A stretch of DNA of 64,000 nt from an uncultured Bacteroidales bacterium (GCA_902801475.1 CADCIO010000004.1:13784-77783); one strand, 5' to 3'. Counted from the stretch's first letter, positions 4,551 to 64,000 are shown. Program-made: numbers and translations. Notes: generated by a model not told the origin, from the letters alone.

Positions 4551-4567
4551 TTGACAATTGACAGTTT
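4551..4567. repeat. heptamer word array TTGACAA-TTGACAG-TTT filling the aminotransferase|4568 spacer
   Basis: Read directly. It is complementary (13/14) to part of the array at 6859-6884. Confidence 0.8.
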
Positions 4568-8293: not shown

Positions 8294-9223
8294 ATGAAGA
8301 GCATTTGTAATTTCATTGCCCGATGGATGGGCGCACTGGTGCTATTGATGGCAGTTGTGGCGATATTGTGGCCTCAACCCTTCAACGATATACCGACCTT
8401 ATGGATCAACCCGATGCTGGGACTCATCATGTTTGGAATGGGTCTGACGCTGAATGTGGAGGATTTCCGGATTGTGTTCAGTCGTCCGAAGGATGTGCTG
8501 ATTGGATGTCTGGCTCAGTTCACCATCATGCCTTTGATGGCGTGGGTGTTGGCGAAGGGGTTCCAATTGCCAGATGAACTGGCACTGGGTGTCATCTTGG
8601 TGGGCTGTTGTCCTGGTGGCACAGCCTCGAACGTGATCACCTATCTGGCGAAAGGCGATTTGGCACTCTCTGTGGGTATGACAGCCTGTTCCACCCTGCT
8701 GGCTCCGCTCATGACTCCCCTCCTCACTTGGTTGATGGCAGACACGTTTGTCGACGTAGATACATGGGGGATGCTGCTATCCATCCTGTATGTGGTCATC
8801 CTACCCATCGTGGGTGGATTCCTGATACAGAAGTTCCTGCCGAAGTTCACGAAGGAAGTGGTGGCTTATCTACCCGCTTTCTCCACGTTGATGATTACAG
8901 GTGCGGTTGGCATCGTGATAGGTCATAATGCAGGAAAGCTGCTGAGTGGGGGAATGATTGTCATCCTCGTGGTGATGCTTCATAACCTCAGTGGACTGGC
9001 TTTGGGTTATGGTCTTGGCCGTCTGCTTCGACTGTCCCATCCCAAACGTACTGCCATCAGCATCGAGGTGGGTATGCAGAACAGCGGCTTGGCTTGTTCA
9101 CTGGCTGCGACACACTTTGCCGCTTCACCTATGGCCACTATCCCAGGCGCCATCTTCAGTGTATGGCACAACATCAGCGGCGCGCTGGTGGCGAAGCTGT
9201 ATGCGATGAGAAGTGAGAAGTAA
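8294..9223 (+). CDS. bile acid:sodium symporter (BASS) family transporter
   Basis: Multi-TM protein with '[29 protein letters not shown]' and '[10 protein letters not shown]', typical of the BASS/SBF family. The start was moved to the ATG at 8294 because the -7 box at 8267-8274 lies inside the longer ORF. Confidence 0.85.
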   Translation: [309 protein letters not shown]

Positions 9224-9255
9224 GAGGGAAGAGGGAAGAAGTAAGAAGTAAGAGG
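9221..9255. repeat. five heptamers TAAGAGG-GAAGAGG-GAAGAAG-TAAGAAG-TAAGAGG starting at the stop codon of the BASS gene
   Basis: Read directly. Confidence 0.85.
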
Positions 9256-21031: not shown

Positions 21032-21134
21032 AAAAACTAAAAACTAAAAACTAAAAACTAAAAGTTAGTGTTACTGACCCATCGAAACAGCAGGATACTT
21101 ATACTTTTAACTTTTAACTTTTAGTTTTTAACTT
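21032..21134. repeat. palindromic heptamer-array element in the LuxR|mutY divergent promoter region
   Basis: The left arm is AAAAACT x4 plus AAAAGTT (21032-21066). The right arm is CTTTTAA-CTTTTAA-CTTTTAG-TTTTTAA-CTT (21104-21134). 21052-21067 is perfectly complementary to 21115-21130 (16 bp). Confidence 0.85.
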
Positions 21135-23073: not shown

Positions 23074-23828
23074 GAAGTAAACTCCTGACTCTCGTAACAT
23101 TCACATTACTCTTGTCCTCTCTGTCAGCCTGTCACGGCATCCTCGACGAGCTCTACGACGAGCCATCGGATGAGGTGACCCTGAAAGAGGGGCAACTGTA
23201 TGTGGACGCATCCAGCTGGACAGATTGGTATTATATCGACCTGACGGATGCGAAGAAGGAATTTGTCAGGAAAGAAATCCCAACAGAAGCCACAGACTCT
23301 TTACATCGCGTTAGCCCTCCCCCTTTGGGAGCTGGGGGGCTCTACACTTATTGGTATGATGTATTTGGTGAAGGAATTTCCAAGCATGAGTTTCGAGGTT
23401 TCACGCCAACAGATAAACAGCCCGAACCCGAGTCTTGGCATATCGCTGTTCATCGCAATAACGTGAGGACGAATGGTGGTGCTGTGTATGAGACTTCCTA
23501 CACCTCAATGAATGATCTGCCTGAAAGCAGCGAGGCATTTGCTGATGCCACCTTCACGGAAGATGAATGGAATGAACTGGACGTGTGGACAGTTCAGGCA
23601 CAGATGCTGCAAGGACTCATTGGCAATCAAGGCATCAAAATCAACCCAGTGTTGTCCTCGTGGCTCAAGGTGTCGCTTCCCCCTGTACCACCAGTATTCA
23701 CCCTCAACAATCACGTGTTCATCGTTCGTTTCGAAGACGGCACTTATGCTGCCATCCAATTAGAGAACTACCAGAATGCAGCAGGGGTGAAATGCCACCT
23801 TACTATTAATTATAAGTACCCGTTTTGA
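23070..23828 (+). CDS. HmuY-family (heme-binding) lipoprotein
   Basis: 252 aa with lipobox 'LSSLSAC'. 'WHIAVHRNNVRTNGGAVYET' matches the HmuY-family core motif. An ATGA start/stop overlap links it to the upstream gene. Confidence 0.65.
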   Translation: MRSKLLTLVTFTLLLSSLSACHGILDELYDEPSDEVTLKEGQLYVDASSWTDWYYIDLTDAKKEFVRKEIPTEATDSLHRVSPPPLGAGGLYTYWYDVFGEGISKHEFRGFTPTDKQPEPESWHIAVHRNNVRTNGGAVYETSYTSMNDLPESSEAFADATFTEDEWNELDVWTVQAQMLQGLIGNQGIKINPVLSSWLKVSLPPVPPVFTLNNHVFIVRFEDGTYAAIQLENYQNAAGVKCHLTINYKYPF

Positions 23829-23864
23829 AAGTTGAAAGTTGAGAGTCGATAGTTGAGAGTTTGA
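23826..23864. repeat. heptamer array TGAAAGT-TGAAAGT-TGAGAGT-CGATAGT-TGAGAGT-TTGA filling the hmuY|TonB-receptor spacer
   Basis: Read directly. It starts at the hmuY stop codon and ends at the receptor ATG. Confidence 0.85.
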
Positions 23865-32043: not shown

Positions 32044-33351
32044 ATGACAACACCATTAGATTATACGATTGTGACCGATGCCATCGAGGGGATGGGGCTG
32101 GGCGACTTCTCGCAGGCCACCATCCGTGACATCCAATCACTCTCGAAAGTGCTGGAAGAAAAGACGGGACAGACGGTCATCCATCTGGAGATGGGTGTGC
32201 CAGGTCTGCAGCCTTCGGACATCGCCATCAAAGCAGAACAAGAGGCGTTGCAGAACGGTTGCGCCACCATCTACCCTCCCAACGGCGGTATTCCACGCAT
32301 CAAGAACGCGGCTTCGCGTTTCGTCAAGGCATTCATCGGAGTGGACATCGACCCACTCTGCTGCATCCCCACCACAGGTTCGATGCAGGGTACTTTTGCT
32401 GTCTTCACGGCTTGGCACCACGCCATGCCTGAGAAGGACACCGTGCTGTTCATCCATCCCGGTTTCCCTGTACAGACCTCGCAATGCGACGTGATTGGCT
32501 TGAAACATATCGGCTTGGACATTCACGACTATCGCGGTGATGCGCTCGTTGAGAAGCTGGAAGAGATCCTGTCGGCAGGCAACATCTGTGGTATTGTCTA
32601 TTCAAACCCCAACAACCCATCATGGGTATGCTTCAATGAGGAAGAGCTGAAGGGCATCGCCATGTTGGCAGACAAGCACGACTGCATCATCCTGGAAGAC
32701 CTCGCTTACTTCGCGATGGACTTCCGCAGGGATCTGAGTCATCCGTTCGAAGCACCTTATCAGGCTACGGTGGCAAGATATACAGACAAGTACATCTTGG
32801 CCGTGTCGGGCTCGAAGGCATTCTCGTATGCGGGTCAACGCATCGGTGTGGCTTGTATCAGCAACACCCTCTACCACCGTGTCTATCCTGCTTTGGAGCA
32901 GAACTTTGGCGTGGGTGAGTTCGGAAACTTCTTCTGCAACCGACTGATGTACACGCTCAGTAGCGGTACGACACATAGTGTGCAGCACGCAATGGCAGCG
33001 CTGATGGAAGCAGCTTGTGACGGTCAGTACAACTTCTTGGCTGATGTACGCGAGTATGGCAGAAGAGCCAAGTATATGAAGGACGTGCTCCTGACCAACG
33101 GCTTCTACCTCGTGTATGACAACGACATGGGCGCACCCTTAGCTGACGGTTTCTACTTTACGGTACAGTACCCAGGCATGACTGACCTCCAACTGACACG
33201 TGAACTGATGTACTATGGCATTGCCGTGTTCCCGCTCGACACGATGGGTTCGAACGAACAAGGCGTGCGCATATGTACCTCGTTCTTCTCAAAGGAACAG
33301 GAGCCGATGTTTAAAGAGAGAATAGAAAGTTTCAATCGTAATCATTCATAA
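32044..33351 (+). CDS. class I/II pyridoxal-phosphate aminotransferase
   Basis: 435 aa with 'VSGSKAFSYAGQRIG' (PLP-lysine context) and 'YSNPNNPSW'. It is embedded between the two PaaK paralogs. Confidence 0.8.
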   Translation: MTTPLDYTIVTDAIEGMGLGDFSQATIRDIQSLSKVLEEKTGQTVIHLEMGVPGLQPSDIAIKAEQEALQNGCATIYPPNGGIPRIKNAASRFVKAFIGVDIDPLCCIPTTGSMQGTFAVFTAWHHAMPEKDTVLFIHPGFPVQTSQCDVIGLKHIGLDIHDYRGDALVEKLEEILSAGNICGIVYSNPNNPSWVCFNEEELKGIAMLADKHDCIILEDLAYFAMDFRRDLSHPFEAPYQATVARYTDKYILAVSGSKAFSYAGQRIGVACISNTLYHRVYPALEQNFGVGEFGNFFCNRLMYTLSSGTTHSVQHAMAALMEAACDGQYNFLADVREYGRRAKYMKDVLLTNGFYLVYDNDMGAPLADGFYFTVQYPGMTDLQLTRELMYYGIAVFPLDTMGSNEQGVRICTSFFSKEQEPMFKERIESFNRNHS

Positions 33352-33400
33352 GACCTATAAGTCCTATAAGACCTATAAGACCTATAAGCCCCATAAAACC
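33347..33400. repeat. six 9-mers (C/T)ATAA(G/A)NCC filling the aminotransferase|paaK-2 spacer
   Basis: CATAAGACC-TATAAGTCC-TATAAGACC-TATAAGACC-TATAAGCCC-CATAAAACC, read directly. The first unit contains the stop codon. Confidence 0.85.
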
Positions 33401-38644: not shown

Positions 38645-38764
38645 AATTGAGAATTGAAAATTGAGAATTGAAAAATTCACCATTCGGTACGTTTTTTCTG
38701 ACAGAAAGCACGTTGAACAGCCAATTTGTCAATTCCCAATTATCAATTATCCATCTTCAATTGC
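38645..38764. repeat. imperfect palindromic heptamer-array element between the GH97 stop and the rplS promoter
   Basis: The left arm is AATTGAG-AATTGAA-AATTGAG-AATTGAA-AAATT (38645-38677). The right arm is CAATTTGT-CAATTCC-CAATTAT-CAATTAT-CCATCTT-CAATTGC (38722-38764), whose reverse complement gives AATTGA-type words. Confidence 0.75.
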
Positions 38765-38766
38765 CA

Positions 38767-40704
38767 TTATTTATTCACAATCACCAGACCGCCATTCGTT
38801 GGAATCGTGACAGCGATTTGCTTCTTGGCCTTGACAGTGGTAAGACTGCCATTGAGTTGGGCATCGTCGCTATACATCATCAGTTTAGCACCTTTTCCAT
38901 ACATGCTAAGGTCGATGTTTGTTTTCAGTGGCTCCTTGCTTGCGTTGATACCTGCAATAAACCAATGATCGCCAGCACGACGAGCAATGATGGCATACTT
39001 GCCTGGATAACCATCGATGAACTTCACCTCATCCCAAGTGGTGGGCACATGCTTCATGAAATCAATCGCCCAATCAGGAGCATCAGTCAGGTTGTTGGGT
39101 GCGAGGGCGAAGTGCTGCACGGCACTCTGGAAGAGAACCGCTGTGGAGAGGGCATAAACATCAGAAGTGACGCGGTGTGTACCACGCTTGTTGTCTGCAC
39201 TATAGAACTTATTGAGTGTGGAACCACCAAAGTCCATGGAACCAACGGTGTTGCGGATGAAGGTGTGAAGGGTGGCATTGTGTGCCTCAGCATCGCAAGC
39301 GCCTTGTCCGAAGTGGAGATTCTCAGAGGCGAGAACGGCTTCACTGGCTGCATAGTTAGGGTACATACGTTCCCAACCACGAGGCAGGGTGCAACCATGG
39401 AAGATGACCAGAATGCCAAAATCGTTGGCGTCTGAAAGGATATCCTCATAGAGCTGCATCATGTTCTGCTTGTCACCACCAAAGAAATCGACCTTAATAC
39501 CACGGATGCCCACACGCTTCATCCATGCCATTTCTGCACGACGTTCACGACTCTTGTCCATCTTGCCAATAGGTGACTGAGGGGCATCGTTCCAAGAACC
39601 ATTGGAGTTGTACCAAAGGAAGAGACCCACACCCTTGGTCTTACCGTAGGCAGCCAATTCCGCAATTCTGTCATAACCAATTTGCTTGTCCCAAAGGGCA
39701 TCGATGAGTACAGTCTGATAACCCATCGCAGCAGAGAAGTCAATGTAGCGTTTCTGTTCATCGTAATTACAGCTGGCATCCATACCGATAATCCAGCTCC
39801 ACGAACCCTTACCATAGATATATTCCTGCGAAGCTTGGTACTTTGGAGCCACCAAGTCAAAAGGAACTGTGGTCTCCACGATAGGAGCCAAGGTCGTACC
39901 CAACGTGATAGTGCGCCAAGGCGTCTCACAAGGCAATGCTACAGAAGCAGAGGTGGATCCCCAACCGTTGCACTCACCTGGCTGTGGAAAACCAATCTTA
40001 TAGAGTCCACCATTCACATTGAGAAGTCGACTGGCCACATAGCCACCATCCACTCCAGTTTCGCTGATGAGCACCCAACCTTTGTCGCCAAAATGGAAAA
40101 GGCATGGGAAAGAATAGCCTTCACCCCAGCCGTTCTTGCCCATCTGGTCATCGTCGGTATAGGAAGTCTCATAACTGGGAGATGTACGGGCAAAACCACC
40201 CATAGGACGTGACTGAGGGCACATGAAAGTGGTCGTACCCTCTGGCAACTGAAAACCACTAGCTTCACTCTCAATCACACATACTTTTGTATCGCGCTGT
40301 GGTAAAATGCGATAGCGATAAGCCACGTCACGATTGCTCACACGGAAGATGACATCCATCACCTTCTTGCCCTTCTGTTCGAAGCTGCACACGGCCTCTA
40401 TCGCTTCATAATCGACATGACTCCGTTTGATGTTACGCAGGTCATAGGATTCCTTCACCTCATTCACTTCGCAACCCGCCAAAGTTAGGTCACTGGTATA
40501 GTTGCCGATGTTAGTGTTGACGCCCAGAGGTGAACTGCCAATAAATTCGGTGGTGCCCACATTGACACGATAGGTGGCCACCCCGTTCTGATCTTCCACC
40601 ACTACAGTCAGTTTTCCGTCAGGACTTGTAAAAGACTTCTCTGTCGCCCATGCCGACGACCACACACTTGCCAACGCAAGCATTCCCAAAATGATTTTCT
40701 TCAT
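38767..40704 (-). CDS. glycoside hydrolase family 97 (alpha-glucosidase/alpha-galactosidase-like)
   Basis: 645 aa with a signal peptide. 'IKVDFFGGDKQNMMQLYEDILSDANDFGILVIFHGCTLPRGWERMYPN' is a GH97-type catalytic-region pattern. Confidence 0.75.
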   Translation of the reverse strand: MKKIILGMLALASVWSSAWATEKSFTSPDGKLTVVVEDQNGVATYRVNVGTTEFIGSSPLGVNTNIGNYTSDLTLAGCEVNEVKESYDLRNIKRSHVDYEAIEAVCSFEQKGKKVMDVIFRVSNRDVAYRYRILPQRDTKVCVIESEASGFQLPEGTTTFMCPQSRPMGGFARTSPSYETSYTDDDQMGKNGWGEGYSFPCLFHFGDKGWVLISETGVDGGYVASRLLNVNGGLYKIGFPQPGECNGWGSTSASVALPCETPWRTITLGTTLAPIVETTVPFDLVAPKYQASQEYIYGKGSWSWIIGMDASCNYDEQKRYIDFSAAMGYQTVLIDALWDKQIGYDRIAELAAYGKTKGVGLFLWYNSNGSWNDAPQSPIGKMDKSRERRAEMAWMKRVGIRGIKVDFFGGDKQNMMQLYEDILSDANDFGILVIFHGCTLPRGWERMYPNYAASEAVLASENLHFGQGACDAEAHNATLHTFIRNTVGSMDFGGSTLNKFYSADNKRGTHRVTSDVYALSTAVLFQSAVQHFALAPNNLTDAPDWAIDFMKHVPTTWDEVKFIDGYPGKYAIIARRAGDHWFIAGINASKEPLKTNIDLSMYGKGAKLMMYSDDAQLNGSLTTVKAKKQIAVTIPTNGGLVIVNK

Positions 40705-40756
40705 GTTTGTTTTGTTATTTGGTTTGTTAGTTTGTTAGTGATTTAGTTTGTTCGCA
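40705..40756. repeat. G/T-rich word array (GTTTGTT / AGTTTGTT types), which is the A/C-rich 5' UTR of GH97 on the minus strand
   Basis: Read directly. It begins immediately next to the GH97 start codon. Confidence 0.7.
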
Positions 40757-40892: not shown

Positions 40893-40925
40893 CACCCAAC
40901 CAGCCTATGGGCTGGGCGATTCTTT

Positions 40926-40960
40926 AAACTCTAAACACTAAACTTTAAATTTTATAATAA
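40926..40960. repeat. heptamer array AAACTCT-AAACACT-AAACTTT-AAATTTT-ATAATAA in the uxuA 5' UTR
   Basis: Read directly. It ends 4 nt before the uxuA ATG. Confidence 0.75.
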
Positions 40961-52406: not shown

Positions 52407-52466
52407 TAACTTCTAACCACTAACCTCCCAACTCTATAACCTCTAACCCATAACCTATAACCCCTC
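52407..52466. repeat. heptamer array (TAACTTC-TAACCAC-TAACCTC-CCAACTC-TATAACC-TCTAACC-CATAACC-TATAACC) in the ftsQ|ftsA spacer
   Basis: Read directly. Confidence 0.8.
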
Positions 52467-52467
52467 A

Positions 52468-53229
52468 TCACCTCTTCGTGCATATAATCTGGTTGTCGTA
52501 CTCCAGATTCACTCTCGCATACTTTCTCCAGCCCACTGTTCCAATGGCCTTGTCATAGAAAGTCTTGAGCTTGCGGAGTTTCTTCTCATAGTCGTCCAGC
52601 GTACCCAGATAGACAATCTGGTCACCCACTCTCGGCACCAGTTCCACGACATGCTTTCCCTTCCTGTCCTTCATCACGTAGATCTGCTCAATTTGGTTGT
52701 TCCAGAACTCATCCGTCTGAAGGTACTGACCGAACTCTGCCAATTCCTTGCTGGCATACTTTTCGTCGATATTGCCTGAAGCAACCACCAAGTTTGTGCC
52801 ATTGCTGTGATTGGGAATGATGTTGCCCTGTGCATCAACAAAGTAACCATCCTTTCCCTCAGGAATCACAAAGATGATGGGAATGCGCTGCTCCACCGTC
52901 ACACAGAGTTTTCCGTTGGCAGACTTATAGCACTCCACCTTCGAGATAAACTCGTTTCCTCGTATGGTTTCTTCTATCTTCTCTGTATCCACATCCTTCA
53001 TCAACATACCCTTGGGGTACACGTTCGCATTCTTCAACATCTTCTCAATGTCCTTCTCGTCCACAAAGAGGGAGGCATCGTCGCCCTTCTTCACAATCAG
53101 TTCCACAGCCGAGCATCTTTCCTCCTCGTCTGGACCCGACAGGAACAGCATCGCATAAGCCACGTAAGCCACCAACCCTAATGAGAGCAGCGACAGCACT
53201 GTAAACTTCACGATCTTGGACATCTTCAT
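52468..53229 (-). CDS. ftsQ: cell division protein FtsQ/DivIB-like
   Basis: 253 aa with one N-terminal TM segment and a POTRA-like region. It lies between murC and ftsA. Confidence 0.75.
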   Translation of the reverse strand: MKMSKIVKFTVLSLLSLGLVAYVAYAMLFLSGPDEEERCSAVELIVKKGDDASLFVDEKDIEKMLKNANVYPKGMLMKDVDTEKIEETIRGNEFISKVECYKSANGKLCVTVEQRIPIIFVIPEGKDGYFVDAQGNIIPNHSNGTNLVVASGNIDEKYASKELAEFGQYLQTDEFWNNQIEQIYVMKDRKGKHVVELVPRVGDQIVYLGTLDDYEKKLRKLKTFYDKAIGTVGWRKYARVNLEYDNQIICTKR

Positions 53230-53266
53230 GATTCTTCTGCTTTTTAATGATGAATGTATTTCCTGT

Positions 53267-54640
53267 TTATTTCGAAAGTATCTCCGTTATCTGAGGTACA
53301 TAGTTCTCTATATCTCCAGCTCCCAACGACATCAGCACATCAAAGTTCTTGCTACGAGCCACATCCAGAATGTCCTCCTTATGAATGAGGTGTTTCTCAA
53401 TGCCTGGACGTAAGTTGTCGTAAATGAGTTTGCTTGTCACACCCTCAATCGGCAATTCACGTGCAGGATAAATGTCGCAGAGATACACGCAATCCAGCAA
53501 AGACAACGCCGATGCAAACTCCTTGTAGAAGTCACGAGTACGGGTGTACAGATGTGGTTGGAAAATTGCGGCGATCTTCTTGTCTTGGTACAACTCGCGA
53601 ACCGACTTCACACTCTGCTCTATTTCGTTTGGATGATGTGCATAATCGCTGAGGAACACCATCTTGTCGTTCTTCACCTTGAAATCGAAGCGACGATCCA
53701 CCCCTCTGAAACTCTTCATGCCCTCACGCAGTTCCTCGTCTGTCACACCATTCAGAATCGCCAATGCCATAGCAGCAATGCCGTTCTCGATATTGATGCT
53801 GACAGGCACACCCAATTGGATATCCTTCACCACCCCATTGGGATGTACGAAGTCAAACACAATCTCACCCCCACCAATGCGGATGTTCTCAGCATGGAAG
53901 TCACCTTCCTCACGAGCGTATTCATACACCTTCACACCCTCTTGCACATCAGCCTTCATCTCCAATCCCTTATGGATAATCAGCGCACCACCTGGCTGAA
54001 TCAGCGTCGTATATTTGCGGAAGCTTTCCAGATAGGCTTCTTTCGTGCCATAGATATCCAAGTGGTCTGGGTCAGTGGCTGTAATCACCGTCATGTAGGG
54101 ACGCAGCCAATGGAAAGAACGGTCGAACTCATCTGCTTCAATCACCACATAATCGCTGTCTGAGAGGATGTAGTTGGTACCGTAGTTCTTTGAGATGCCA
54201 CCCAAGAAAGCATTGCAATCCACTTTGCTCTGATGCAGGAGGTGTGCTGCCATCGTCGAAGTGGTGGTCTTACCATGCGTACCTGCCACACAGAGCCCCT
54301 TGTGCGATTGTGTCAAGAAGCCCAGCACCTGTGCACGTTTCTGAATCTCAAATCCATTCTCACGGAAATAGACCATTTCCTTGTGCTCAGCAGGAATGGC
54401 TGGTGTATAGACCACCAAAGTGCTCTCCTTCTGCTTGAAGCAAGGGTCAATAGCCTCCACATTCTCCTCGTAATGAATCTTCGCACCCTCCTCTATCAAC
54501 CTTTCCGTCAACTCACTTGGTGTCTTGTCATAACCACCCACGTTATAGCCCTTTGTCAGGAAATAACGAACCAGCGCGCTCATGCCAATGCCACCAGCAC
54601 CTACAAAATACACGGATTTCATCTCTGTCGTCTGCATCAC
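53267..54640 (-). CDS. murC: UDP-N-acetylmuramate--L-alanine ligase
   Basis: 457 aa with 'VYFVGAGGIGMSALVRYF' and 'VAGTHGKTTTSTM'. Confidence 0.94.
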   Translation of the reverse strand: MMQTTEMKSVYFVGAGGIGMSALVRYFLTKGYNVGGYDKTPSELTERLIEEGAKIHYEENVEAIDPCFKQKESTLVVYTPAIPAEHKEMVYFRENGFEIQKRAQVLGFLTQSHKGLCVAGTHGKTTTSTMAAHLLHQSKVDCNAFLGGISKNYGTNYILSDSDYVVIEADEFDRSFHWLRPYMTVITATDPDHLDIYGTKEAYLESFRKYTTLIQPGGALIIHKGLEMKADVQEGVKVYEYAREEGDFHAENIRIGGGEIVFDFVHPNGVVKDIQLGVPVSINIENGIAAMALAILNGVTDEELREGMKSFRGVDRRFDFKVKNDKMVFLSDYAHHPNEIEQSVKSVRELYQDKKIAAIFQPHLYTRTRDFYKEFASALSLLDCVYLCDIYPARELPIEGVTSKLIYDNLRPGIEKHLIHKEDILDVARSKNFDVLMSLGAGDIENYVPQITEILSK

Positions 54641-55773
54641 TTTTGTCTGTTTTTATATTCAATGGCCAGCTTATACACTTCTTCGGCTATCACATCTGCC
54701 GAATTGTGTAGAGCCAGCATCTTTACATTCTCACTTAACGATTTCAGTTTCTCGTCATCCACCACGGTTTTGAGCGCGATGTCGATCAACTGATTTTTTG
54801 CGTCCTTGTCTCGCACCAGGATGGCAGCACCTCTGCTCGACAACGCCTGTGCATTCTTCGTCTGGTGGTCTTCTGCCACATTGGGCGAAGGTACCAAGAT
54901 ACAGGGCTTGCCCAAGAGACAAAGTTCGGAGATGGAACTTGCTCCTGCACGGCTCACCACGATGTCAGCCGCTGCATACGCATTGTCCATGCTGCTGATG
55001 AAGTCCATCACCTTCAGATTCTCCACCGGTTCCACCTTGCCCATCTCCTCTGCGATATGTGCACTGTAGTATTTGCCCGTCTGCCAGATGAACTGCACGT
55101 CGCTCTTCCGGATGTCCTCCAAATGGGCAAGGACACTCTCATTCACTGTCCTCGCACCCAAGCTTCCACCCACAATCAGCACAGTCTTCTTATCCGGATC
55201 CAAGCCGAAGCTCTTTCGGGCCTCTTCCTTCGAGATGTTGCACTCCAACAGATTCTGGCGCACAGGATTGCCCGTCATGATAATCTTCTCAGCAGGGAAG
55301 AAACGGTTCATGCCGCTATAGGCCACACAAACTTTCTTCGCTTTCTTCGCCAACGACTTGTTGGTCACGCCTGCATACGAGTTCTGTTCCTGAATCAAGC
55401 AAGGGATGCCCAACGAATATGCGGCGTTCAACGTGGGAGCTGAGGCGTAACCGCCTACACCCACCGCCACCTGCGGTTGGAAGTCGCGGATGATCTGCTT
55501 CACCATCTTCTTGCTCTTCATGAAATCCATCATCACACCCACATTCTTGGGACTCCACAATGGGCGCACAAGACCTCTGACCGGAAGACCCTCAATCTTA
55601 TATCCAGCAGCAGGTACACGCTGCATCTCCATACGTCCAAGAGCACCCACAAAGAGGATTTCCGCTTCTGGATGTTGCTTTTTGATGGCATTGGCAATCG
55701 ACACCGCTGGAAAGATGTGGCCACCTGTTCCACCACCACTGATAATCACACGCAAAGGTCTGTTCTGTTCCAT
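54637..55773 (-). CDS. murG: undecaprenyldiphospho-muramoylpentapeptide beta-N-acetylglucosaminyltransferase
   Basis: 378 aa beginning 'ISGGGTGGHIFPAVSIANA'. It overlaps murC by 4 nt. Confidence 0.94.
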   Translation of the reverse strand: MEQNRPLRVIISGGGTGGHIFPAVSIANAIKKQHPEAEILFVGALGRMEMQRVPAAGYKIEGLPVRGLVRPLWSPKNVGVMMDFMKSKKMVKQIIRDFQPQVAVGVGGYASAPTLNAAYSLGIPCLIQEQNSYAGVTNKSLAKKAKKVCVAYSGMNRFFPAEKIIMTGNPVRQNLLECNISKEEARKSFGLDPDKKTVLIVGGSLGARTVNESVLAHLEDIRKSDVQFIWQTGKYYSAHIAEEMGKVEPVENLKVMDFISSMDNAYAAADIVVSRAGASSISELCLLGKPCILVPSPNVAEDHQTKNAQALSSRGAAILVRDKDAKNQLIDIALKTVVDDEKLKSLSENVKMLALHNSADVIAEEVYKLAIEYKNRQK

Positions 55774-55811
55774 TTTCAGCTACTCAAATTCAGGATGTAT
55801 TATATATGTGG

Positions 55812-55819
55812 CAAAGATA
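55812..55819 (-). promoter_or_regulatory. internal dcw -7 box TATCTTTG upstream of murG
   Basis: TAnnTTTG on the minus strand, in the 131-nt ftsW-murG spacer. Confidence 0.4.
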
Positions 55820-55904
55820 CAAATAATTGATGGATGGGCAAGCATAAATGCCCATAATTTATCAAAATATCGTGCTTTTTTTTCGTGCAAATGTCCTTTT
55901 GACT

Positions 55905-57239
55905 TTAAGACATTCCTCCGTCAGTGTAATACTCGCTGGTCTCCCCATCTGCCACCGCTTCCACCAAGGGTGTTTTCATCTCCTTTTTTTCGGCATAACG
56001 GCTCACACTCAGGATGACGCCGATATAGAAACTCGTGATGAGGATGGATGTTCCTCCCTTACTGATCAGCGGCAAAGTCTGACCCGTCACAGGCACCAAA
56101 CCGACCGCCACGCTCATATTGACAAACGCCTGCAACACCATCATGATGCCGAAGCCCAGCACCAGATAAGCAGGGAAGAAACTCGTGCACTTCTGGGCGA
56201 TACGTCCGACGCGAATGAGCAACGCCAAATAGAGGAAGGCCACGAAGAAAGCACCTCCTATGCCCAATTCCTCCACGATGATGGCGTAGATGAAGTCAGA
56301 TTCTGCATGCTGCAGGAAATCGCGCTGAATGGAATTGCCCGGTCCCAACCCGATCACGTCCGAGTTGGCGATGGCAATGGAGGCATAGGTGGTCTGCGAA
56401 TTCTCGTCATTCAGCAGAATCTCCGTCTTACTCTTGCTCGCCTTCTTCACATCGTTGTCTTCGCCCAAATCGAACTTGCGCATCACACGGTGCTTCACCG
56501 TCACCAGACGCTTGGTCATCGAGGTCTCATTGAGCACCTTCTCAGGAGTCACCATCGCCACCATACCGACAATGGCACCCATGAGGACCAGCACCATGAT
56601 GCCCTTGAACATCAGGTCACGAGGTACATGACCAATGAACATCATCACCAGCACCACGAAGAAGAGCATCAGACCCGTTGACATGTTGTCCATCATGATG
56701 AGTCCGCAAACCAGCAGCGACGCGCCACCCACGATGGCAAAGGCCAGATAGCGCTTTCCCTTGATGGCGCCCACCACCTTCCGTTTCCGGCCTCGCACCC
56801 ACTCCTCCTTTTCCGTCTGCGTCTTGGCCAACACCATCGCAGCCGTCATCAGGAGGGCGGCTTTCGCCAATTCCGAAGGCTGGAAACGGATGCCCAAGAA
56901 TTCCACCCATCGGTTCGTCTCATTCACCGTGCTGCCGCCACCAAACACAGCCGTGTAGAACAGCAGCAGGATGACGACCGGCAACAGCACAAACGGGAAA
57001 AGCATGAACCACTTGCAAGGGATGCGATGCACCAAAAGGATGATGATCAGACCAAACACGAGGAATCCAGCCTGGCTCACCATCGGTGCCCAGTGATGTC
57101 CTCCTTCGAACGTCAGACGGCTCGAAGCGCTATATACCTCCACCAGCGAAATCATGCACAGGAAGAAGTAAATCATCCACACACCCTTGTCACCCTTGAA
57201 GAGGCTGCCTCCGAAGAGGGCATTCACAAACTTTCCCAT
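55905..57239 (-). CDS. ftsW: SEDS-family peptidoglycan polymerase FtsW
   Basis: 444 aa, multi-TM, with 'FQPSELAK' and 'ESDFIYAIIVEELG...GQTLPLISKGGTS', in the dcw context. Confidence 0.9.
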   Translation of the reverse strand: MGKFVNALFGGSLFKGDKGVWMIYFFLCMISLVEVYSASSRLTFEGGHHWAPMVSQAGFLVFGLIIILLVHRIPCKWFMLFPFVLLPVVILLLFYTAVFGGGSTVNETNRWVEFLGIRFQPSELAKAALLMTAAMVLAKTQTEKEEWVRGRKRKVVGAIKGKRYLAFAIVGGASLLVCGLIMMDNMSTGLMLFFVVLVMMFIGHVPRDLMFKGIMVLVLMGAIVGMVAMVTPEKVLNETSMTKRLVTVKHRVMRKFDLGEDNDVKKASKSKTEILLNDENSQTTYASIAIANSDVIGLGPGNSIQRDFLQHAESDFIYAIIVEELGIGGAFFVAFLYLALLIRVGRIAQKCTSFFPAYLVLGFGIMMVLQAFVNMSVAVGLVPVTGQTLPLISKGGTSILITSFYIGVILSVSRYAEKKEMKTPLVEAVADGETSEYYTDGGMS

Positions 57240-57270
57240 ATCATCGTTCTTTATATTTTGTTCTTATCTT

Positions 57271-57393
57271 AAAATGACGTCGTTTGGACTCTTGTAATGA
57301 TTACGAGCCTTTAAAACGGGGTCGTTTTGACCTTCGTAACGATTACGAACCTTTAAAACGAGGTCGTTTGGGCCTTTGTAACGACTACATTAC
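57271..57393. repeat. three tandem ~42-bp units with internal dyads in the murD|ftsW spacer
   Basis: The units are 57271-57312, 57313-57354 and 57355-57393, with consensus AAAACGNGGTCGTTT..C.T.GTAACGATTACGA.CCTTT. Each contains AAACGA-NN-TCGTTT-like and CGTAA-N3-TTACG-like dyads. The last unit overlaps the murD stop. Confidence 0.85.
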
Positions 57394-58721
57394 AGATTCT
57401 TCACACATTCCTTGAACTGCTCACCACGATCTTCCATATTCTTGAAGAGGTCGAAGCTTGCGCAGCAGGGACTCAACAGCACCGTGCTCCCTGGTTTTGC
57501 CATCTTGAAGCATTCATCCACACAATCCTTCATGCTCTTCACGTCTGCAATAGGTATGCCGAAGCCATCGAAGGCCGCATGGAGTTTTGAGTTGTCAACA
57601 CCCAGGAAAACCAGGCCGATGCACTTCTCCTTCACCAGATCAAAGATCTCCGAATAGTCGTTGCCCTTGTCCTTACCGCCCAAGATGAGCACAACGGGGG
57701 TGCGCATGCTGTCCAACGCATACCAGCAAGCATTCACGTTGGTGGCTTTCGAGTCGTTGATGAACTCCACACCACGCACTCTGCCCGCTTTCTCCAAACG
57801 ATGCTCCACCCCTTCGAAGGTTTTCAGACCCTCACGAATCTGCTCGTTGCTCACTCCTGCCAAATCGGCCGTGATGCCTGCTGCCAGCGAGTTGTAGAGG
57901 TTGTGCTTGCCGCGCAATGCCAACTCCTCCTGTTCCATATTGAATGGCGTGGGCCCTTCAATCACGTATTCATCCTTATCCACATAGCCAATCACGCTGT
58001 TGCTCTTGAACTCGCTGAACGGACAGAGCTTTGCCTTGATGTTGTATTTCTTCAGTTCAGCCGTCACAATCGGGTCATCGTTCCAGAAGACGAAGGCATC
58101 GTCTGGGGTCTGGTTCTGGATGATGCGCATCTTCGAATCCACATAGTTCTGCATCTTGAAGTCGTAGCGGTCGAGGTGGTCGGGCGTGATGTTCATCAAC
58201 ACGGCAATGTCGGCCTTGAAGTCATACATGTTGTCCAACTGGAAACTGCTCAGCTCGATCACGTAGTAATCATGCTGCTCCTCTGCCACCTGCAGCGCCA
58301 GACTGTTGCCGATATTACCAGCCAAACCCACATTGTAACCCGCATTCTTCAGGATGTGATAGATGAGCGACGTGGTGGTGGTCTTACCGTTCGAACCCGT
58401 GATGCAAATCATCTTTGCGTGGGTGTATCTGCCTGCAAACTCAATCTCCGAAATGATGGGGATGTGCTTCTCCTTAATCTTCAGAATCATCGGCGCATTC
58501 TCGGGAATGCCTGGGCTCTTGATGACCTCGTCGGCATTGAGGATCAGTTCCTCCGTATGATGTCCCTCTTCCCAAACAATCTCGTGACTGTTCAGAAGTT
58601 CCTTATACTTATCCTTGATGGCAGACATGTCGCTGACGAACACATCAAAGCCTTCTTTCTTGGCCAACACAGCGGCTCCAGCACCACTTTCGGCTGCACC
58701 CAAAACTACAATTCTTTTCAT
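57390..58721 (-). CDS. murD: UDP-N-acetylmuramoylalanine--D-glutamate ligase
   Basis: 443 aa with 'ICITGSNGKTTTTSLIYH', in the dcw position. Confidence 0.93.
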   Translation of the reverse strand: MKRIVVLGAAESGAGAAVLAKKEGFDVFVSDMSAIKDKYKELLNSHEIVWEEGHHTEELILNADEVIKSPGIPENAPMILKIKEKHIPIISEIEFAGRYTHAKMICITGSNGKTTTTSLIYHILKNAGYNVGLAGNIGNSLALQVAEEQHDYYVIELSSFQLDNMYDFKADIAVLMNITPDHLDRYDFKMQNYVDSKMRIIQNQTPDDAFVFWNDDPIVTAELKKYNIKAKLCPFSEFKSNSVIGYVDKDEYVIEGPTPFNMEQEELALRGKHNLYNSLAAGITADLAGVSNEQIREGLKTFEGVEHRLEKAGRVRGVEFINDSKATNVNACWYALDSMRTPVVLILGGKDKGNDYSEIFDLVKEKCIGLVFLGVDNSKLHAAFDGFGIPIADVKSMKDCVDECFKMAKPGSTVLLSPCCASFDLFKNMEDRGEQFKECVKNL

Positions 58722-58765
58722 CTTGTTCTATGTTTTATATCGACTACGCCCCATGCGTGGGCTGA

Positions 58766-60025
58766 TTATCTAATCTTCAATGTGATGATGGTGATGGCGG
58801 CAAGCAGGATGGTGACAATCCAGAATCTTGTCGTAATCATGGATTCAAACAGCAATCCGTGTGGACGCTTGATGAGGTACTTCACCCCGTCTTCCATTCT
58901 GTGACGGTAATGATCATGGAAGGGCGCACGCTTGAACACTCTCCACTTCTCGCCTCTCGCATTTCCCTTCTTGGCATACGACAGCTGCAAGATGACCGAA
59001 AGGCTCTCCATCAGGAAGATGCCACACAGGATGGGCAACAGCAATTCCTTATGGATGATGATGGCAGTGACAGCAATCACACCACCAATGGCAAGGCTGC
59101 CGGTGTCACCCATGAAGACCTTCGCTGGATAGGCATTGTACCACAAGAAACCGACCAACGCTCCCACAAAGGCACAAAGGAATACCAACACCTCTTCTGT
59201 ACCTGGAATATACATGACATTCAGGTAACTGGCAAACTGCACATGACCACTCACGTAGGCCAAAATGCCCAACGTCACACCAATGATGGCTGAGTTTCCA
59301 GCACACATTCCGTCCATACCGTCATTCAGGTTCGCACCATTGCTGACAGCAGCAATCACGAAGGTGGTGACCAGCACGAAGAGGATCCAGCCACACGCAC
59401 GCTTGGTCTTACCGTCATGAATGAAACCAAAAACTTCGTAGTAGTCGATGTTATTGCTCTTCACGAAAGGCACAGTCGTCACCGTACTCTTTCTCGACTC
59501 ACTCATATGATAGACCTCGACCTTCTCACCAATCTCACGTTCCACATTCTCGCGCACCACAGCGTCGGGACTCAACCACAAAGTCAAACCGACCGCGATG
59601 CCAAACGCAAACTGCGCCAACAATTTCAGTTTGGGAGGCATACCATCCTTGTTGCCACCCAACTTGATCTTATCGTCAATGAAGCCAATGATGCCGAAGA
59701 ATGCGATGGTGGCAATCAGCAGCACCATATACACATTGCTCAATTTACCAAAGAACAAAGCAGGCACCAGCACGGCCAGCAGGATGACCACACCACCCAT
59801 CGAAGGCACGCCTTTCTTCTGCACTCCATACGGGTCGATGGATGCGTCGCGCGCCTCCTCTATATGCTTCTTCTTACGCATATACTTGATGAAATACTCA
59901 CCTGCCACCATCGAAATGATCAACGAGAGAATCAAGGATGACAAACCTCTGAAAGACACATAACAGAACATTCCCGCGCCAGGAATGTCAAGTCCATCTA
60001 AATATTTGAATAAGTCGTATAACAT
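58766..60025 (-). CDS. mraY: phospho-N-acetylmuramoyl-pentapeptide transferase
   Basis: 419 aa, multi-TM, with 'GANLNDGMDGMCAG', 'FMGDTGSLAIGG' and 'PFHDHY'. Confidence 0.94.
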   Translation of the reverse strand: MLYDLFKYLDGLDIPGAGMFCYVSFRGLSSLILSLIISMVAGEYFIKYMRKKKHIEEARDASIDPYGVQKKGVPSMGGVVILLAVLVPALFFGKLSNVYMVLLIATIAFFGIIGFIDDKIKLGGNKDGMPPKLKLLAQFAFGIAVGLTLWLSPDAVVRENVEREIGEKVEVYHMSESRKSTVTTVPFVKSNNIDYYEVFGFIHDGKTKRACGWILFVLVTTFVIAAVSNGANLNDGMDGMCAGNSAIIGVTLGILAYVSGHVQFASYLNVMYIPGTEEVLVFLCAFVGALVGFLWYNAYPAKVFMGDTGSLAIGGVIAVTAIIIHKELLLPILCGIFLMESLSVILQLSYAKKGNARGEKWRVFKRAPFHDHYRHRMEDGVKYLIKRPHGLLFESMITTRFWIVTILLAAITIITLKIR

Positions 60026-60045
60026 ATATTGTATTGGTCAAATTT

Positions 60046-60129
60046 TCTCTTACCTCTTACCTCTAACTTCTAACTTCTTACCTCTAACTTCTTACCTCTT
60101 ACTTCTCACCTCTTCCTTCTTACCTCTCC
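60046..60129. repeat. twelve consecutive heptamers CYTCTYA in the murE|mraY spacer
   Basis: TCTCTTA-CCTCTTA-CCTCTAA-CTTCTAA-CTTCTTA-CCTCTAA-CTTCTTA-CCTCTTA-CTTCTCA-CCTCTTC-CTTCTTA-CCTCTCC. On the mRNA (minus) strand these read as GGTAAGA/GTTAGAG-type purine words. Confidence 0.9.
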
Positions 60130-60130
60130 A

Positions 60131-61582
60131 TCAAGCAAAGCACGCTCTCACTTCCTCCTTGTCATCAAAATGGTGCTTCACACCCTTCACGTCCTGATAG
60201 TCCTCGTGTCCCTTTCCAGCGATGAGGATGACATCCCCACTCTTCGCCATCATGCAGGCAGTCTTGATGGCCTGACGACGATCTACGATGGCGATGACTT
60301 TCTTCATCTGCTCTTCGTCCAATCCTGCCAACATGTCGTTGATGATGTCCTGAGGTTCCTCAAATCGGGGGTTATCGCTGGTGATGATGACGCGATCACT
60401 CTGCTTCACTGCCTCACGTGCCATCAACGGACGCTTACCTTTGTCGCGATTGCCACCAGCGCCACAAACGGTGATGACCTCTCCCTTTCCTTCCAACACA
60501 CCATGAATGGCATTCAGCACATTCTCCAACGCATCGGGCGTGTGAGCATAATCAACGATGGCCGTATATCCTGATGGAGAGCGCAACGCCTCAAATCGTC
60601 CATTCACAGGCTTCATCGCACTCAAAGCCACCAGCACCTCCTGCTCGTCCTTGCCCAACATCACAGCAGCACCATACACAGCCAAAAGATTGCTCACATT
60701 GAACTTTCCAATGAACTGCACACCCACTTCCTTTCCGTTGATATTGAGGTACATGCCCTCGAAGTGGCACTCGATGATCTTTGCCTTGAAGTCGGCTGGA
60801 CTCTGCACTGAATAGGTCTTCACCTGCGCCTTCGTGTTCTGCACCATCACCATTCCGTTCTTGTCATCGACGTTCGTGATGGCAAACGCCTCTTTAGGCA
60901 GATTGTCGAAGAAAAGTTTCTTGGCCTTGATATAGTTCTCGAAGGTCTTGTGATAGTCGAGGTGGTCACGTGTGATATTCGTGAACATGCCCCCAGCAAA
61001 GGTCAAGCCGCCAATGCGGTTCTGCACAATGCTGTGACTGCTCACCTCCATGAAGGCATACTCGCATCCTTCCTCCACCATACGAGCCAGAAGCGCATTC
61101 AGCGTGATGGGATCAGGAGTCGTATGTTCTGTGGGTATCGCCTCACCATCGATGTAGTTGCACACCGTCGAGAGCAATCCCACTTTATGTCCCATGTAGC
61201 GGAACATCTCGTACAGCACAGTGGCAATGGTCGTCTTACCGTTCGTACCCGTCACACCCACCAGTTTCATCTTGCTCGTCGGGTCACCATAGAAGGTGGT
61301 TGCCACCTGTCCCACCACCTGTTCCGTGTTCTCCACACGAACATAAGTGACGTTCTCGGCCACATCCTCTGGAATCATCTCGCAAAGTACGGCAGCCGCT
61401 CCTTTCTCCAAAGCTTTGCCAATATAGTTATGACCATCGGCCACAGTACCCCTCACAGCGATGAAGAGATGTCCTTCTGCCACCTGACGGGAGTCTATCT
61501 GCACGCCACAAATGTCACGCTCCAAATCGCCCTTGACCTCAAGGACATTGAGCTTGCTTACGAGATTCTTCAGTTTCATCAT
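60131..61582 (-). CDS. murE: UDP-N-acetylmuramoyl-L-alanyl-D-glutamate--2,6-diaminopimelate ligase
   Basis: 483 aa with '[17 protein letters not shown]' and 'DNPRFEEP'. Confidence 0.93.
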
Positions 61583-61585
61583 TAT

Positions 61586-61623
61586 TAATTTTCAATTTTC
61601 AATTCTCAATTTTCAATTTTCAA
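61586..61623. repeat. heptamer array TAATTTT-CAATTTT-CAATTCT-CAATTTT-CAATTTT-CAA filling the ftsI|murE spacer
   Basis: Read directly. On the mRNA strand it reads TTGAAAA/TTGAGAA, with a TGA in every unit. Confidence 0.9.
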
Positions 61624-63828: not shown

Positions 63829-64000
63829 TACCCTTCTGTTTTTAACGTGTCTTTTTTCTCTTCCTGTTTCACTTCTTCCTTCTTTCCACTTCCATCATCC
63901 TTTTTCTCTTCCATCTTCACCTCTTCTTTCTTCCCTTCCAGCATCTCCTCCTCTTGCGGTGCCAGTTCTTGGGAATCCACCAGCACCTCTTCTGGCAGGT
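63828..64000 (-). CDS. C-terminal part of an FtsL-like / hypothetical dcw protein (truncated by the window edge)
   Basis: An open frame runs to the window end and translates to '...LPEEVLVDSQELAPQEEEMLEGKKEEVKMEEKKDDGSGKKEEVKQEEKKDTLKTEG*'. Its TAA shares one nt with the ftsI ATG. The function is assigned by position only. Confidence 0.45.
   Translation of the reverse strand, partial: LPEEVLVDSQELAPQEEEMLEGKKEEVKMEEKKDDGSGKKEEVKQEEKKDTLKTEG

Follow-up and report, generated by a model that had tools for sequence, protein, structure and literature searches.

Head-to-tail heptanucleotide repeats have been catalogued since 1990 in cyanobacteria, Beggiatoaceae, Xanthomonas, Burkholderia and other bacteria, and those of heterocystous cyanobacteria are known as short tandemly repeated repetitive (STRR) sequences. 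In 2007, Mrazek et al. reportedly described long simple-sequence repeats (LSSRs) and proposed for them a slippage process with an intrinsic preference for 7-nt units. We know of no accepted source or function for tandem heptanucleotide repeats. Here, we analyze arrays of this type in a 64,000-nt stretch of DNA from an uncultured Bacteroidales bacterium (GCA_902801475.1 CADCIO010000004.1:13784-77783; hereafter the window), which carries a division and cell wall (dcw) gene cluster, and across the genome to which it belongs, a 3.0-Mb draft of an uncultured rumen Prevotellaceae (G000; 77 contigs, 48.6% GC, 98.7% complete). Overall, our analysis tips the balance toward a model in which a family of selfish cassettes resembling intervening sequences (IVSs) accounts for the heptamer arrays, as its arms and remnants reshaped by slippage, and not an operon device.

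The arrays resemble STRR and LSSR repeats in having direct tandem 7-nt units and a number of unrelated words in each genome, in being dispersed and mostly intergenic, and in their unexplained function and sporadic phylogenetic distribution. They differ in their Bacteroidota host, a peak in length at ~33 nt, the ~20% that form hairpin arms, a tie to genes of the PF05635 family, and the ~19% that lie in frame within genes. TAACTGA direct repeats occur between genes of marine Beggiatoaceae, cyanobacteria and five Bacteroidetes (MacGregor 2015, PMC4679880). These too are heptamers, in 2-6 copies a few nucleotides upstream of start codons, with an AACT core and some Bacteroidetes hosts, but they represent a single word with no reported link to a cassette or hairpin, whereas 64 other words are found here. 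Membership of our arrays in this family can be ruled out, as no tandem of two or more TAACTGA units exists on either strand of the whole genome. An initial reading of the window, made from its sequence alone (the sequence-only reading), knew of no described repeat family with such an architecture; for tandem heptamers as such that was mistaken, as STRR, LSSR and TAACTGA repeats have all been described (PMC4679880).

IVSs of 23S rRNA with an S23p open reading frame (ORF), known from Coxiella burnetii and Leptospira (PMC4990558), resemble the full-length element described below in their PF05635 ORF, inverted-repeat stem of ~28-33 bp, length of ~430-500 nt and selfish nature. In the Coxiella IVS, RNase III cuts a terminal stem of 28 bp midway along its length (PMC4990558). 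IVSs occupy an rRNA helix (25, 45 or 9) and their excision by RNase III has been shown, whereas the elements here lie in operon spacers; unlike IVSs, they have tandem-heptamer arms and numerous derivatives that are gene-less or solitary. Palindromic repeats in frame within genes have been described in Rickettsia (Rickettsia palindromic elements, RPEs; reviewed in PMC10969869). [quoted passage not shown] The arrays here differ in that we found no transposase-encoding parent and no target-site duplication, and in having tandem-array arms and a QLSTVNS-like peptide driven by the 7-nt period; they have no sequence relation to RPEs, and the likeness is in behavior only. Our literature search found no paper linking IVSs or PF05635 to heptanucleotide repeats. 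To the known tandem heptamers (STRR, LSSR, TAACTGA) and in-frame Rickettsia palindromes, we add the derivation of one hairpin family (family A) from a specific cassette, a 33-nt length rule that holds across repeat periods, a contrast in array density between sister species, a panel of dcw junctions, and a catalogue of in-frame copies.

Running Tandem Repeats Finder (TRF) on the genome yielded 1065 repeat clusters, 404 of which have a period of 7; three simulations from order-3 Markov models, fitted separately to coding DNA and to intergenic DNA, gave 0, 0 and 1 period-7 clusters. The period-7 arrays that the sequence-only reading had reported at gene junctions, including those of the dcw cluster, are therefore real and exceed the expectation from composition. 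Merging left 410 arrays with 64 canonical words, the top five words accounting for 163 of the 410, and an AACT/AGTT core is present in 45% of words compared to 8.8% expected (five-fold). Array length shows a sharp mode at 32-33 nt, equivalent to 4.6-4.7 units (median 4.7 copies; range 3 to 20). Period-8 arrays also have a median length of 33 nt, but reach it with 4.1 units, so it is length and not unit number that is conserved. The arrays are dispersed and predominantly intergenic: by crude ORF calls, 201 lie at co-directional, 73 at divergent and 28 at convergent junctions and 89 inside ORFs, and ~78% are outside ORFs though non-coding DNA makes up only ~10% of the genome. Junction occupancy is ~10% overall (co-directional 9.5%, divergent 13.1%, convergent 7.3%), and the arrays constitute ~4% of intergenic DNA. 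The median distance from an array to the downstream start is 20 nt (lower quartile 7 nt), and ~20% of arrays form inverted pairs. We ruled out an assembly artefact, as arrays are found at orthologous sites in dozens of independent metagenome-assembled genomes (MAGs) with reading frame preserved. Phase-variation (contingency) loci are unlikely, as a one-unit change would frameshift housekeeping genes and most arrays do not lie between promoter elements.

The genome contains five full-length genes of PF05635 ("23S rRNA intervening-sequence protein") above the Pfam cut-off and one remnant. Each is bracketed by inverted arrays of ~33 nt, with a word that differs per cassette (C1, AGGAGCA; C6, TAAAGGT; C2, TAAATGA; C12, AATTAAG; C48, AAAAACT; C53, the remnant, GTGAGAG) and arm duplex energies of -22 to -37.5 kcal/mol. 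The encoded proteins match TIGR02436 ("four helix bundle protein") at 102-124 bits and their closest solved structure, PDB 2RLD, at E=5e-32; the latter entry contains five chains. Avd, the accessory protein of diversity-generating retroelements (DGRs), has a homologous four-helix-bundle fold, but the cassette proteins score only 31-34 bits against the Avd equivalog NF033474, with its cut-off of 80 bits, and the 98.7%-complete genome has no match to the reverse transcriptase family PF00078 (RVT_1). Together these results rule out a retroelement or DGR origin. Avd itself is presumably a pentamer; a scheme with one heptamer per pentamer subunit is weakened by the period-8 arrays, with 4.1 units yet 33 nt.

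Cassettes of this type are widespread. PF05635 genes occur in 27 of 41 genomes of the genus, and ~26 of the 30 loci that we read have inverted short-period arrays on both sides, with a period that is mostly 7 and sometimes 8-10, fitted from the host stop codon to the next start codon. Beyond the genus, PF05635 is encoded by 62 of 81 genomes from other genera of the order, and 15 of 28 loci pass a strict arm test (19 or more inverted matches out of 24, together with periodicity) that is passed by 1 of 200 random genes of this genome. All PF05635 copies read lie between or upstream of protein-coding genes and not in 23S rRNA helices. The genome encodes RNase III (C27:54415-55062).

Among well-sampled sister genomes, array density tracks the presence of PF05635, with an imperfect association. 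These densities come from large samples of each genome, with kinship uncontrolled and relatives not independent:

G031 (95% complete), 0 PF05635 genes: 0.0 arrays per 100 kb
G043 (99% complete), 0 PF05635 genes: 1.0 arrays per 100 kb
G045 (92% complete), 0 PF05635 genes: 3.0 arrays per 100 kb
This genome (98.7% complete), 5 PF05635 genes: 13.5 arrays per 100 kb
G003 (98% complete), 6 PF05635 genes: 15.4 arrays per 100 kb
G033 (98% complete), 4 PF05635 genes: 17.0 arrays per 100 kb
G046 (99% complete), 7 PF05635 genes: 18.6 arrays per 100 kb

Gene-less hairpins make up a further form. Family A comprises at least 20 copies with the arrangement (AAAAACT)x4, AAAAGTnAnAGTTAC, loop, GTAACTTATACTTTT, (AGTTTTT)x4, and folds at -22 to -40 kcal/mol compared to about -10 for shuffles. 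The C48 cassette (C48:19956-20462) has family-A arms, and the inner segments of the family-A hairpins correspond to the inner ends of this cassette, AAAAGTTAAAATTAC... and ...CCCCTATCCGCATGGTGGTAACTATTACTTTT; because arms and both inner ends match, these hairpins are internal-deletion copies of the C48 cassette. Like MITEs, they are short, have inverted ends and derive by internal deletion from a longer element. They depart from MITEs in that the parent encodes a PF05635 protein only, with no transposase, and in that no target-site duplication is visible at 20 hairpin borders, where array ends are fuzzy. Stem mismatches in 20 inverted pairs with known transcription direction, mostly of family A, comprise 46 A.C and 10 G.U on the sense strand; gene-less hairpins therefore prefer the orientation with the weaker mRNA stem.

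Cassettes of one type also occur in differing contexts. A C2-type cassette in relative G042 has a protein 87% identical to that of C2 and shares its TAAATGA arms and GCGTAGCGTA tail, but lies within unrelated flanks, and the flanks of a second cassette-protein pair, 82% identical, are unrelated as well. At the junction between KYYKKNSK-stop and MANSYTDVPEIKF, ~10 kb upstream of murE, relatives L137, L146, L147, L164, L075 and L077 have cassettes that are 58-79% identical, with arms differing in word and periods of 8, 10 and 11 nt, which suggests that this junction is an insertion or replacement hotspot. In relative G006, a ~50-nt element composed of arrays and the core GGCTCCGCCGAGCTGAAG is present at both murE junctions and within the homologue of an 808-aa gene of the window. 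These patterns would be consistent with movement of the element.

We mapped the arrays of the window by TRF (marked where it supplied the boundaries or count) and by direct reading of the sequence:

4551-4567, plus strand: minimal TTGACAN repeat, 2.4 units, between an aminotransferase gene and the 808-aa gene
6149-6181, plus strand: in-frame solitary array AACTNTC, 4.7 units, peptide NYQLSTLNCQL
6482-6580, plus strand: family-B hairpin of inverted ATAGTTG and CAACTAT arrays with a GGCTACCGCC core, 99 nt, 33 codons, in frame in the 808-aa gene
6858-6885, plus strand: in-frame solitary array TCAATTG/TCAACTG, 4 units, peptide INCQLSTVNW
9207-9255, plus strand: solitary arrays TGAGAAG, then AAGAGGG/AAGAAGT, beginning with the stop codon of an SBF-family transporter gene
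21032-21134, no strand assigned: family-A gene-less hairpin, (AAAAACT)x4.6, inner segment and loop, (AACTTTT/AGTTTTT)x4.6
23825-23861, plus strand: solitary array TTGAAAG/TTGAGAG, 5.3 units, filling a stop-to-start spacer (TRF)
33348-33400, plus strand: array of the 9-nt unit ATAAGACCT, 5.9 units, filling a stop-to-start spacer (TRF)
38645-38762, no strand assigned: gene-less hairpin, AATTGAG x3.9 and TCAATTA x4.9, inverted, with a 57-nt loop, between two minus-strand genes (TRF)
40706-40752, minus strand: array GTTTGTTA (TAACAAAC in the mRNA sense), period 8/12 and not 7, upstream of the gene at 38767-40704 (TRF)
40922-40954, plus strand: CTTTAAA-like heptamer array in a 5' leader, 4.7 units (TRF)
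52407-52463, minus strand: degenerate heptamer array in the ftsQ-ftsA spacer, ~8 heptamer-sized units, GGTTATA/GGTTAGA in the mRNA sense (TRF)
60047-60127, minus strand: solitary heptamer array in the murE-mraY spacer, 11.6 units of CTCTTAC, GAGGTAA/GAAGTTA in the mRNA sense (TRF)
61587-61623, minus strand: solitary heptamer array in the ftsI-murE spacer, 5.3 units of AATTTTC, TTGAAAA in the mRNA sense (TRF)

Most sites named in the sequence-only reading hold: the three dcw arrays, 9222-9255 (4.9 units by TRF), 23825-23861, 40922-40954 and the 9-mer version at 33348-33400. The repeat at 4551-4567 is too short to be significant on its own, and the array at 40706-40752 belongs to an 8-nt word family with further occurrences elsewhere in the genome. 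That reading overlooked the three copies inside the 808-aa gene and the inverted pairs at 21032-21134 and 38645-38762. The ftsI-murE array occupies the whole stop-to-start gap. At the ftsQ-ftsA site, TRF reports 4.0 period-7 units (52436-52463) inside an array of 14-nt period (3.9 copies) that spans the site. The 40922-40954 array is preceded by a TAnnTTTG box accompanied by a small GC hairpin, and followed by a start codon at 40965. Two divergent TAnnTTTG promoter boxes flank the family-A hairpin at 21032-21134, which has a minimum free energy (MFE) of -21.6 kcal/mol compared to -7.4 when shuffled. Family B consists of the 6482-6580 hairpin (MFE -48.2) and copies on C13 and C21, with CAACTNT-type arms and the GGCTACCGCC core. 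A weak TRF period-7 signal at 63859-63934 (63% matches, T/C-rich), in an ORF upstream of ftsI, is probably low-complexity coding sequence and not a member of the array family.

In the dcw block, NCBIfam confirms a penicillin-binding protein (FtsI-like), MurE, MraY, MurD, FtsW, MurG, MurC, FtsA and FtsZ; the search gave no match for the putative ftsQ. We compared the dcw junctions across 17 relatives, with sister species at 92-96% MurE identity, and found that presence, word and unit number all vary. Each junction is a mosaic, with a short array-free spacer in some species and an array of another word, copy number or orientation in others. The ftsI-murE junction has a short array-free spacer in ~7 of 17 relatives (~10 nt in L057), and its array is reversed in orientation in L056 and L066. 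The ftsQ-ftsA arrays of this genome, L057 and L059 are homologous and share a 3' flank, with different units; orthologous arrays thus keep their flanks but carry species-specific homogenized units, which indicates concerted evolution. A set of 80 dcw loci (21 kb each; named MAGs and isolates) includes many species that are array-free, cultured Prevotella and Xylanibacter ruminicola among them, and others with 3-6 arrays of ~4.6-4.7 units. The dcw words GTTTAGA and GGTTTGA of relatives also serve as cassette arms in the genus, and solitary arrays and paired arms have a common length mode of 30-35 nt. A role for the arrays as mRNA processing or stability signals that set dcw stoichiometry, one of the possibilities raised from the sequence, is disfavored because they are not conserved among close species; every dcw junction is array-free in some sister species, making such a conserved function unlikely. 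Nor do genes overlap or abut wherever an array is missing, as that reading also stated: dcw spacers with no heptamer array measure 150 nt (murD-ftsW, with 42-nt repeats), 131 nt (ftsW-murG), 44 nt (mraY-murD) and 37 nt (murC-ftsQ).

These spacers contain other elements. The murD-ftsW spacer holds 2.9 copies of a 42-nt unit (57269-57388), each with a small palindrome, and the same junction in relatives has palindrome arrays of ~21-nt period. Genome-wide, units of 41-42 nt occur in at least 20 arrays and units of 21-22 nt in many others; these arrays are a second intergenic repeat class, with periods that are multiples of 7. Small GC-rich hairpins, CAGCCCACGCATGGGGCGTAG and CCAGCCTATGGGCTGGGCG, lie at ~58725-58745 in the mraY-murD spacer and at 40897-40917; the motif recurs at two dcw junctions of relative L061 and may be another small dispersed element. 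The 131-nt ftsW-murG spacer (55774-55904) is kept in nearly all relatives and holds TTTGTATCTTTGCC, a Bacteroidota-type TAnnTTTG -7 box. Judged by this sequence, the dcw cluster probably has an internal promoter here.

Genome-wide, 77 arrays (~19%) are set in by 150 nt or more from the ends of ORFs of 300 aa or longer, and mostly encode QLSTVN[SC]-type peptides. These peptides recur because the 7-nt unit passes through all three frames over 21 nt, and because CAACTGT is stop-free in every frame while its complement contains TGA. Hosts backed by Pfam include RecG, UvrA, FtsK, CbiD/CbiJ, pyruvate formate-lyase (within the PFL domain), ATP synthase gamma, a PrmC-like methyltransferase, CobQ and a GH35 glycosidase. 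The longest coding copy found is a 16.7-unit CAACTGT array in RecG (C9:79211-79327, outside the window), whose 117 nt or 39 codons are in frame between the wedge and helicase domains. Only a subset of the genus has the two hairpin elements that lie in variable loops of ATP synthase gamma. The 99-nt hairpin at 6482-6580 is missing from 9 congeneric homologues, and 5 close species each have a different insert at that position. In arms of the antisense orientation, the unit that would place TGA in frame is mutated (AGTGGAC at 6482-6580, TAAACTG on C21), indicating that the genes are translated through the element; these point changes in in-gene copies also argue for selection after insertion. The 6149-6181 array is present in this genome and G010 only, where it partly overwrites ancestral sequence with a net change of +15 nt, and the 6858-6885 array is specific to this genome (net +6 nt). 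In behavior, the elements parallel RPEs: a palindrome lies in frame in unrelated conserved genes and not in their orthologues. The 808-aa gene itself (4568-6994) has no Pfam domain, and its homologues in more distant congeners are ~1250-1300 aa long. By this comparison of lengths, the version of this clade is C-terminally shortened, besides its three in-frame repeat inserts.

We propose the following model for these arrays. The full element is a cassette of ~450-500 nt containing a small four-helix-bundle gene (PF05635/TIGR02436) between two inverted ~33-nt arrays, mostly of 7-nt units, wedged between a host stop codon and the next host start codon. Internal deletion would give rise to MITE-like gene-less hairpins of ~100 nt, and loss of one arm, or local seeding, to solitary arrays; we infer that the three dcw arrays arose in this way. 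Replication slippage and unequal exchange would then homogenize units and let copy number drift up to 20. The host would act as a filter, tolerating copies in spacers and accepting in genes only the stop-free orientation at a frame-preserving length, with CCTC orientations under-represented on mRNA. In the transcript, paired arms should form a ~33-bp stem comparable to that of the Coxiella IVS (28 bp), and cleavage by RNase III could free the cassette RNA.

Several observations weigh against this model. No transposase, target-site duplication or reverse transcriptase was found for the element, which leaves it with no known way to move. Relatives G006 (86% complete) and G010 (74% complete) have arrays with no detected PF05635 gene, though their ~13-kb samples are noisy, and G012, with 5 PF05635 genes, has no array in a 9-kb sample. 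CAACTNT, which surpasses every other word family in abundance, is without an intact cassette in this genome. The link to the dcw cluster is indirect, as none of the 80 relatives' 21-kb loci has a PF05635 gene at a dcw junction, and their only two matches (L075, L077) lie ~10 kb upstream at the KYYKKNSK-MANSYTDVPEIKF junction. The ftsI-murE array resembles the local gene end GAATTGAAT, which fits growth in situ as well as insertion, and the arrays at 6149-6181 and 6858-6885 overwrite ancestral sequence beside a CAACTG-like local seed, which pure insertion does not explain. The A.C excess in stems, from a sample dominated by family A, suggests that gene-less copies are not selected for a strong mRNA stem. 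Finally, gene calls throughout are crude ORF calls, and every genome is a draft MAG.

The local seeds at ftsI-murE and inside genes, and the arrays of G006 and G010, are also what would be expected of autonomous LSSRs, in which slippage in place prefers 7-nt units, coding DNA is purged of the products, and PF05635 cassettes are bystanders that use or capture arrays. Concerted evolution of orthologous arrays and copy numbers of 3 to 20 also speak for such a process, and PMC4679880 cites heptanucleotides as the most frequent class of LSSR for many prokaryotes. We nonetheless consider it unlikely: sisters with the same replication machinery and no PF05635 gene have 0-3 arrays per 100 kb against 13-19, the 32-33-nt mode is common to period-7 and period-8 arrays, words are restricted to the point of a 45% AACT/AGTT core, inverted pairs have conserved cores, and one core-plus-array element sits at two junctions of a single genome. 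Neutral slippage had also been offered in the sequence-only reading, and the species-specific units between common flanks bear out this part of it. Slippage alone accounts for the picture only partly, because the length mode, the restricted words, the inverted pairs and the PF05635 link are left unexplained.

A bolder possibility is that the PF05635 protein itself recognizes and propagates the ~33-nt arrays, whose 7-8-nt-unit arms would reach spacers, and genes in frame, by being written or copied there. This would constitute a class of mobile element with neither transposase nor reverse transcriptase, and we regard it as doubtful.

It is quite unlikely that the arrays are RNA elements of benefit to the host, whether A/purine-rich spacers or Shine-Dalgarno-like (GAGG) pads that tune translation, with hairpins as processing or terminator signals for stoichiometry. 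In support of this idea, arrays often fill a spacer exactly and end near the downstream start, and a similar proposal has been made for TAACTGA repeats (PMC4679880). Solitary arrays have a modest, word-specific orientation bias (p=0.001), and GAGG-type words outnumber CCTC on mRNA by 30 sense to 12 antisense (p=0.008). The sequence-only reading had described the words as purine-rich on mRNA, which is true of these and of the three dcw arrays; as a general property it is ruled out, with a purine fraction above 0.5 in 111 arrays and below 0.5 in 89. Purifying selection alone, for example against C-rich unstructured RNA, can account for the orientation bias with no function. Solitary arrays are unstructured, as had been proposed for a landing pad, and slightly less structured than array-free spacers (-0.023 vs -0.050 kcal/mol per nt), but no more so than their own shuffles (MFE per nt -0.027 vs -0.019). 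It is also correct that most words (66%) contain stop triplets. These show no strand preference, with stop-bearing words on the sense strand in 133 and on the antisense strand in 132 of 201 arrays (58 vs 57 discordant) and stops in all three frames in 107 vs 115. On these counts an all-frame stop function is rejected, and a selected role for its suggested combination with a landing pad finds no support. Because they are equally common on both strands, stop triplets are a by-product of AT-rich words. Moreover, no dcw array is conserved at 92-96% MurE identity, the ftsI-murE array flips between species, only ~10% of junctions are occupied, divergent and convergent ones included, and 77 copies lie in coding sequence.

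Binding sites for a dedicated non-cassette nucleic-acid-binding protein, such as a cold-shock protein or one with S1 domains, each domain reading 6-7 nt, in a post-transcriptional regulon, would suit the five-fold AACT/AGTT enrichment and uniform ~33-nt length, and were raised for TAACTGA repeats (PMC4679880), but are very improbable given that there are 64 words, that arrays take both orientations with respect to transcription, that the flanking genes inspected share no functional theme, and that close relatives lack the arrays.

For the question that the dcw arrays first raised, the outcome is sobering: they are most likely dispensable passengers and not regulators of cell-division gene dosage. 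The tolerated in-frame repeats are relevant to genome annotation and to protein evolution in rumen Prevotellaceae. More broadly, arrays that form the arms of a cassette with an Avd-like gene, hairpins that are its deletion copies, and a density that tracks the gene among sister species provide a testable handle on heptamer repeats. Propagation driven by PF05635, if true, would explain the decades-old heptamer repeats of bacteria (STRR, LSSR, TAACTGA) across phyla.

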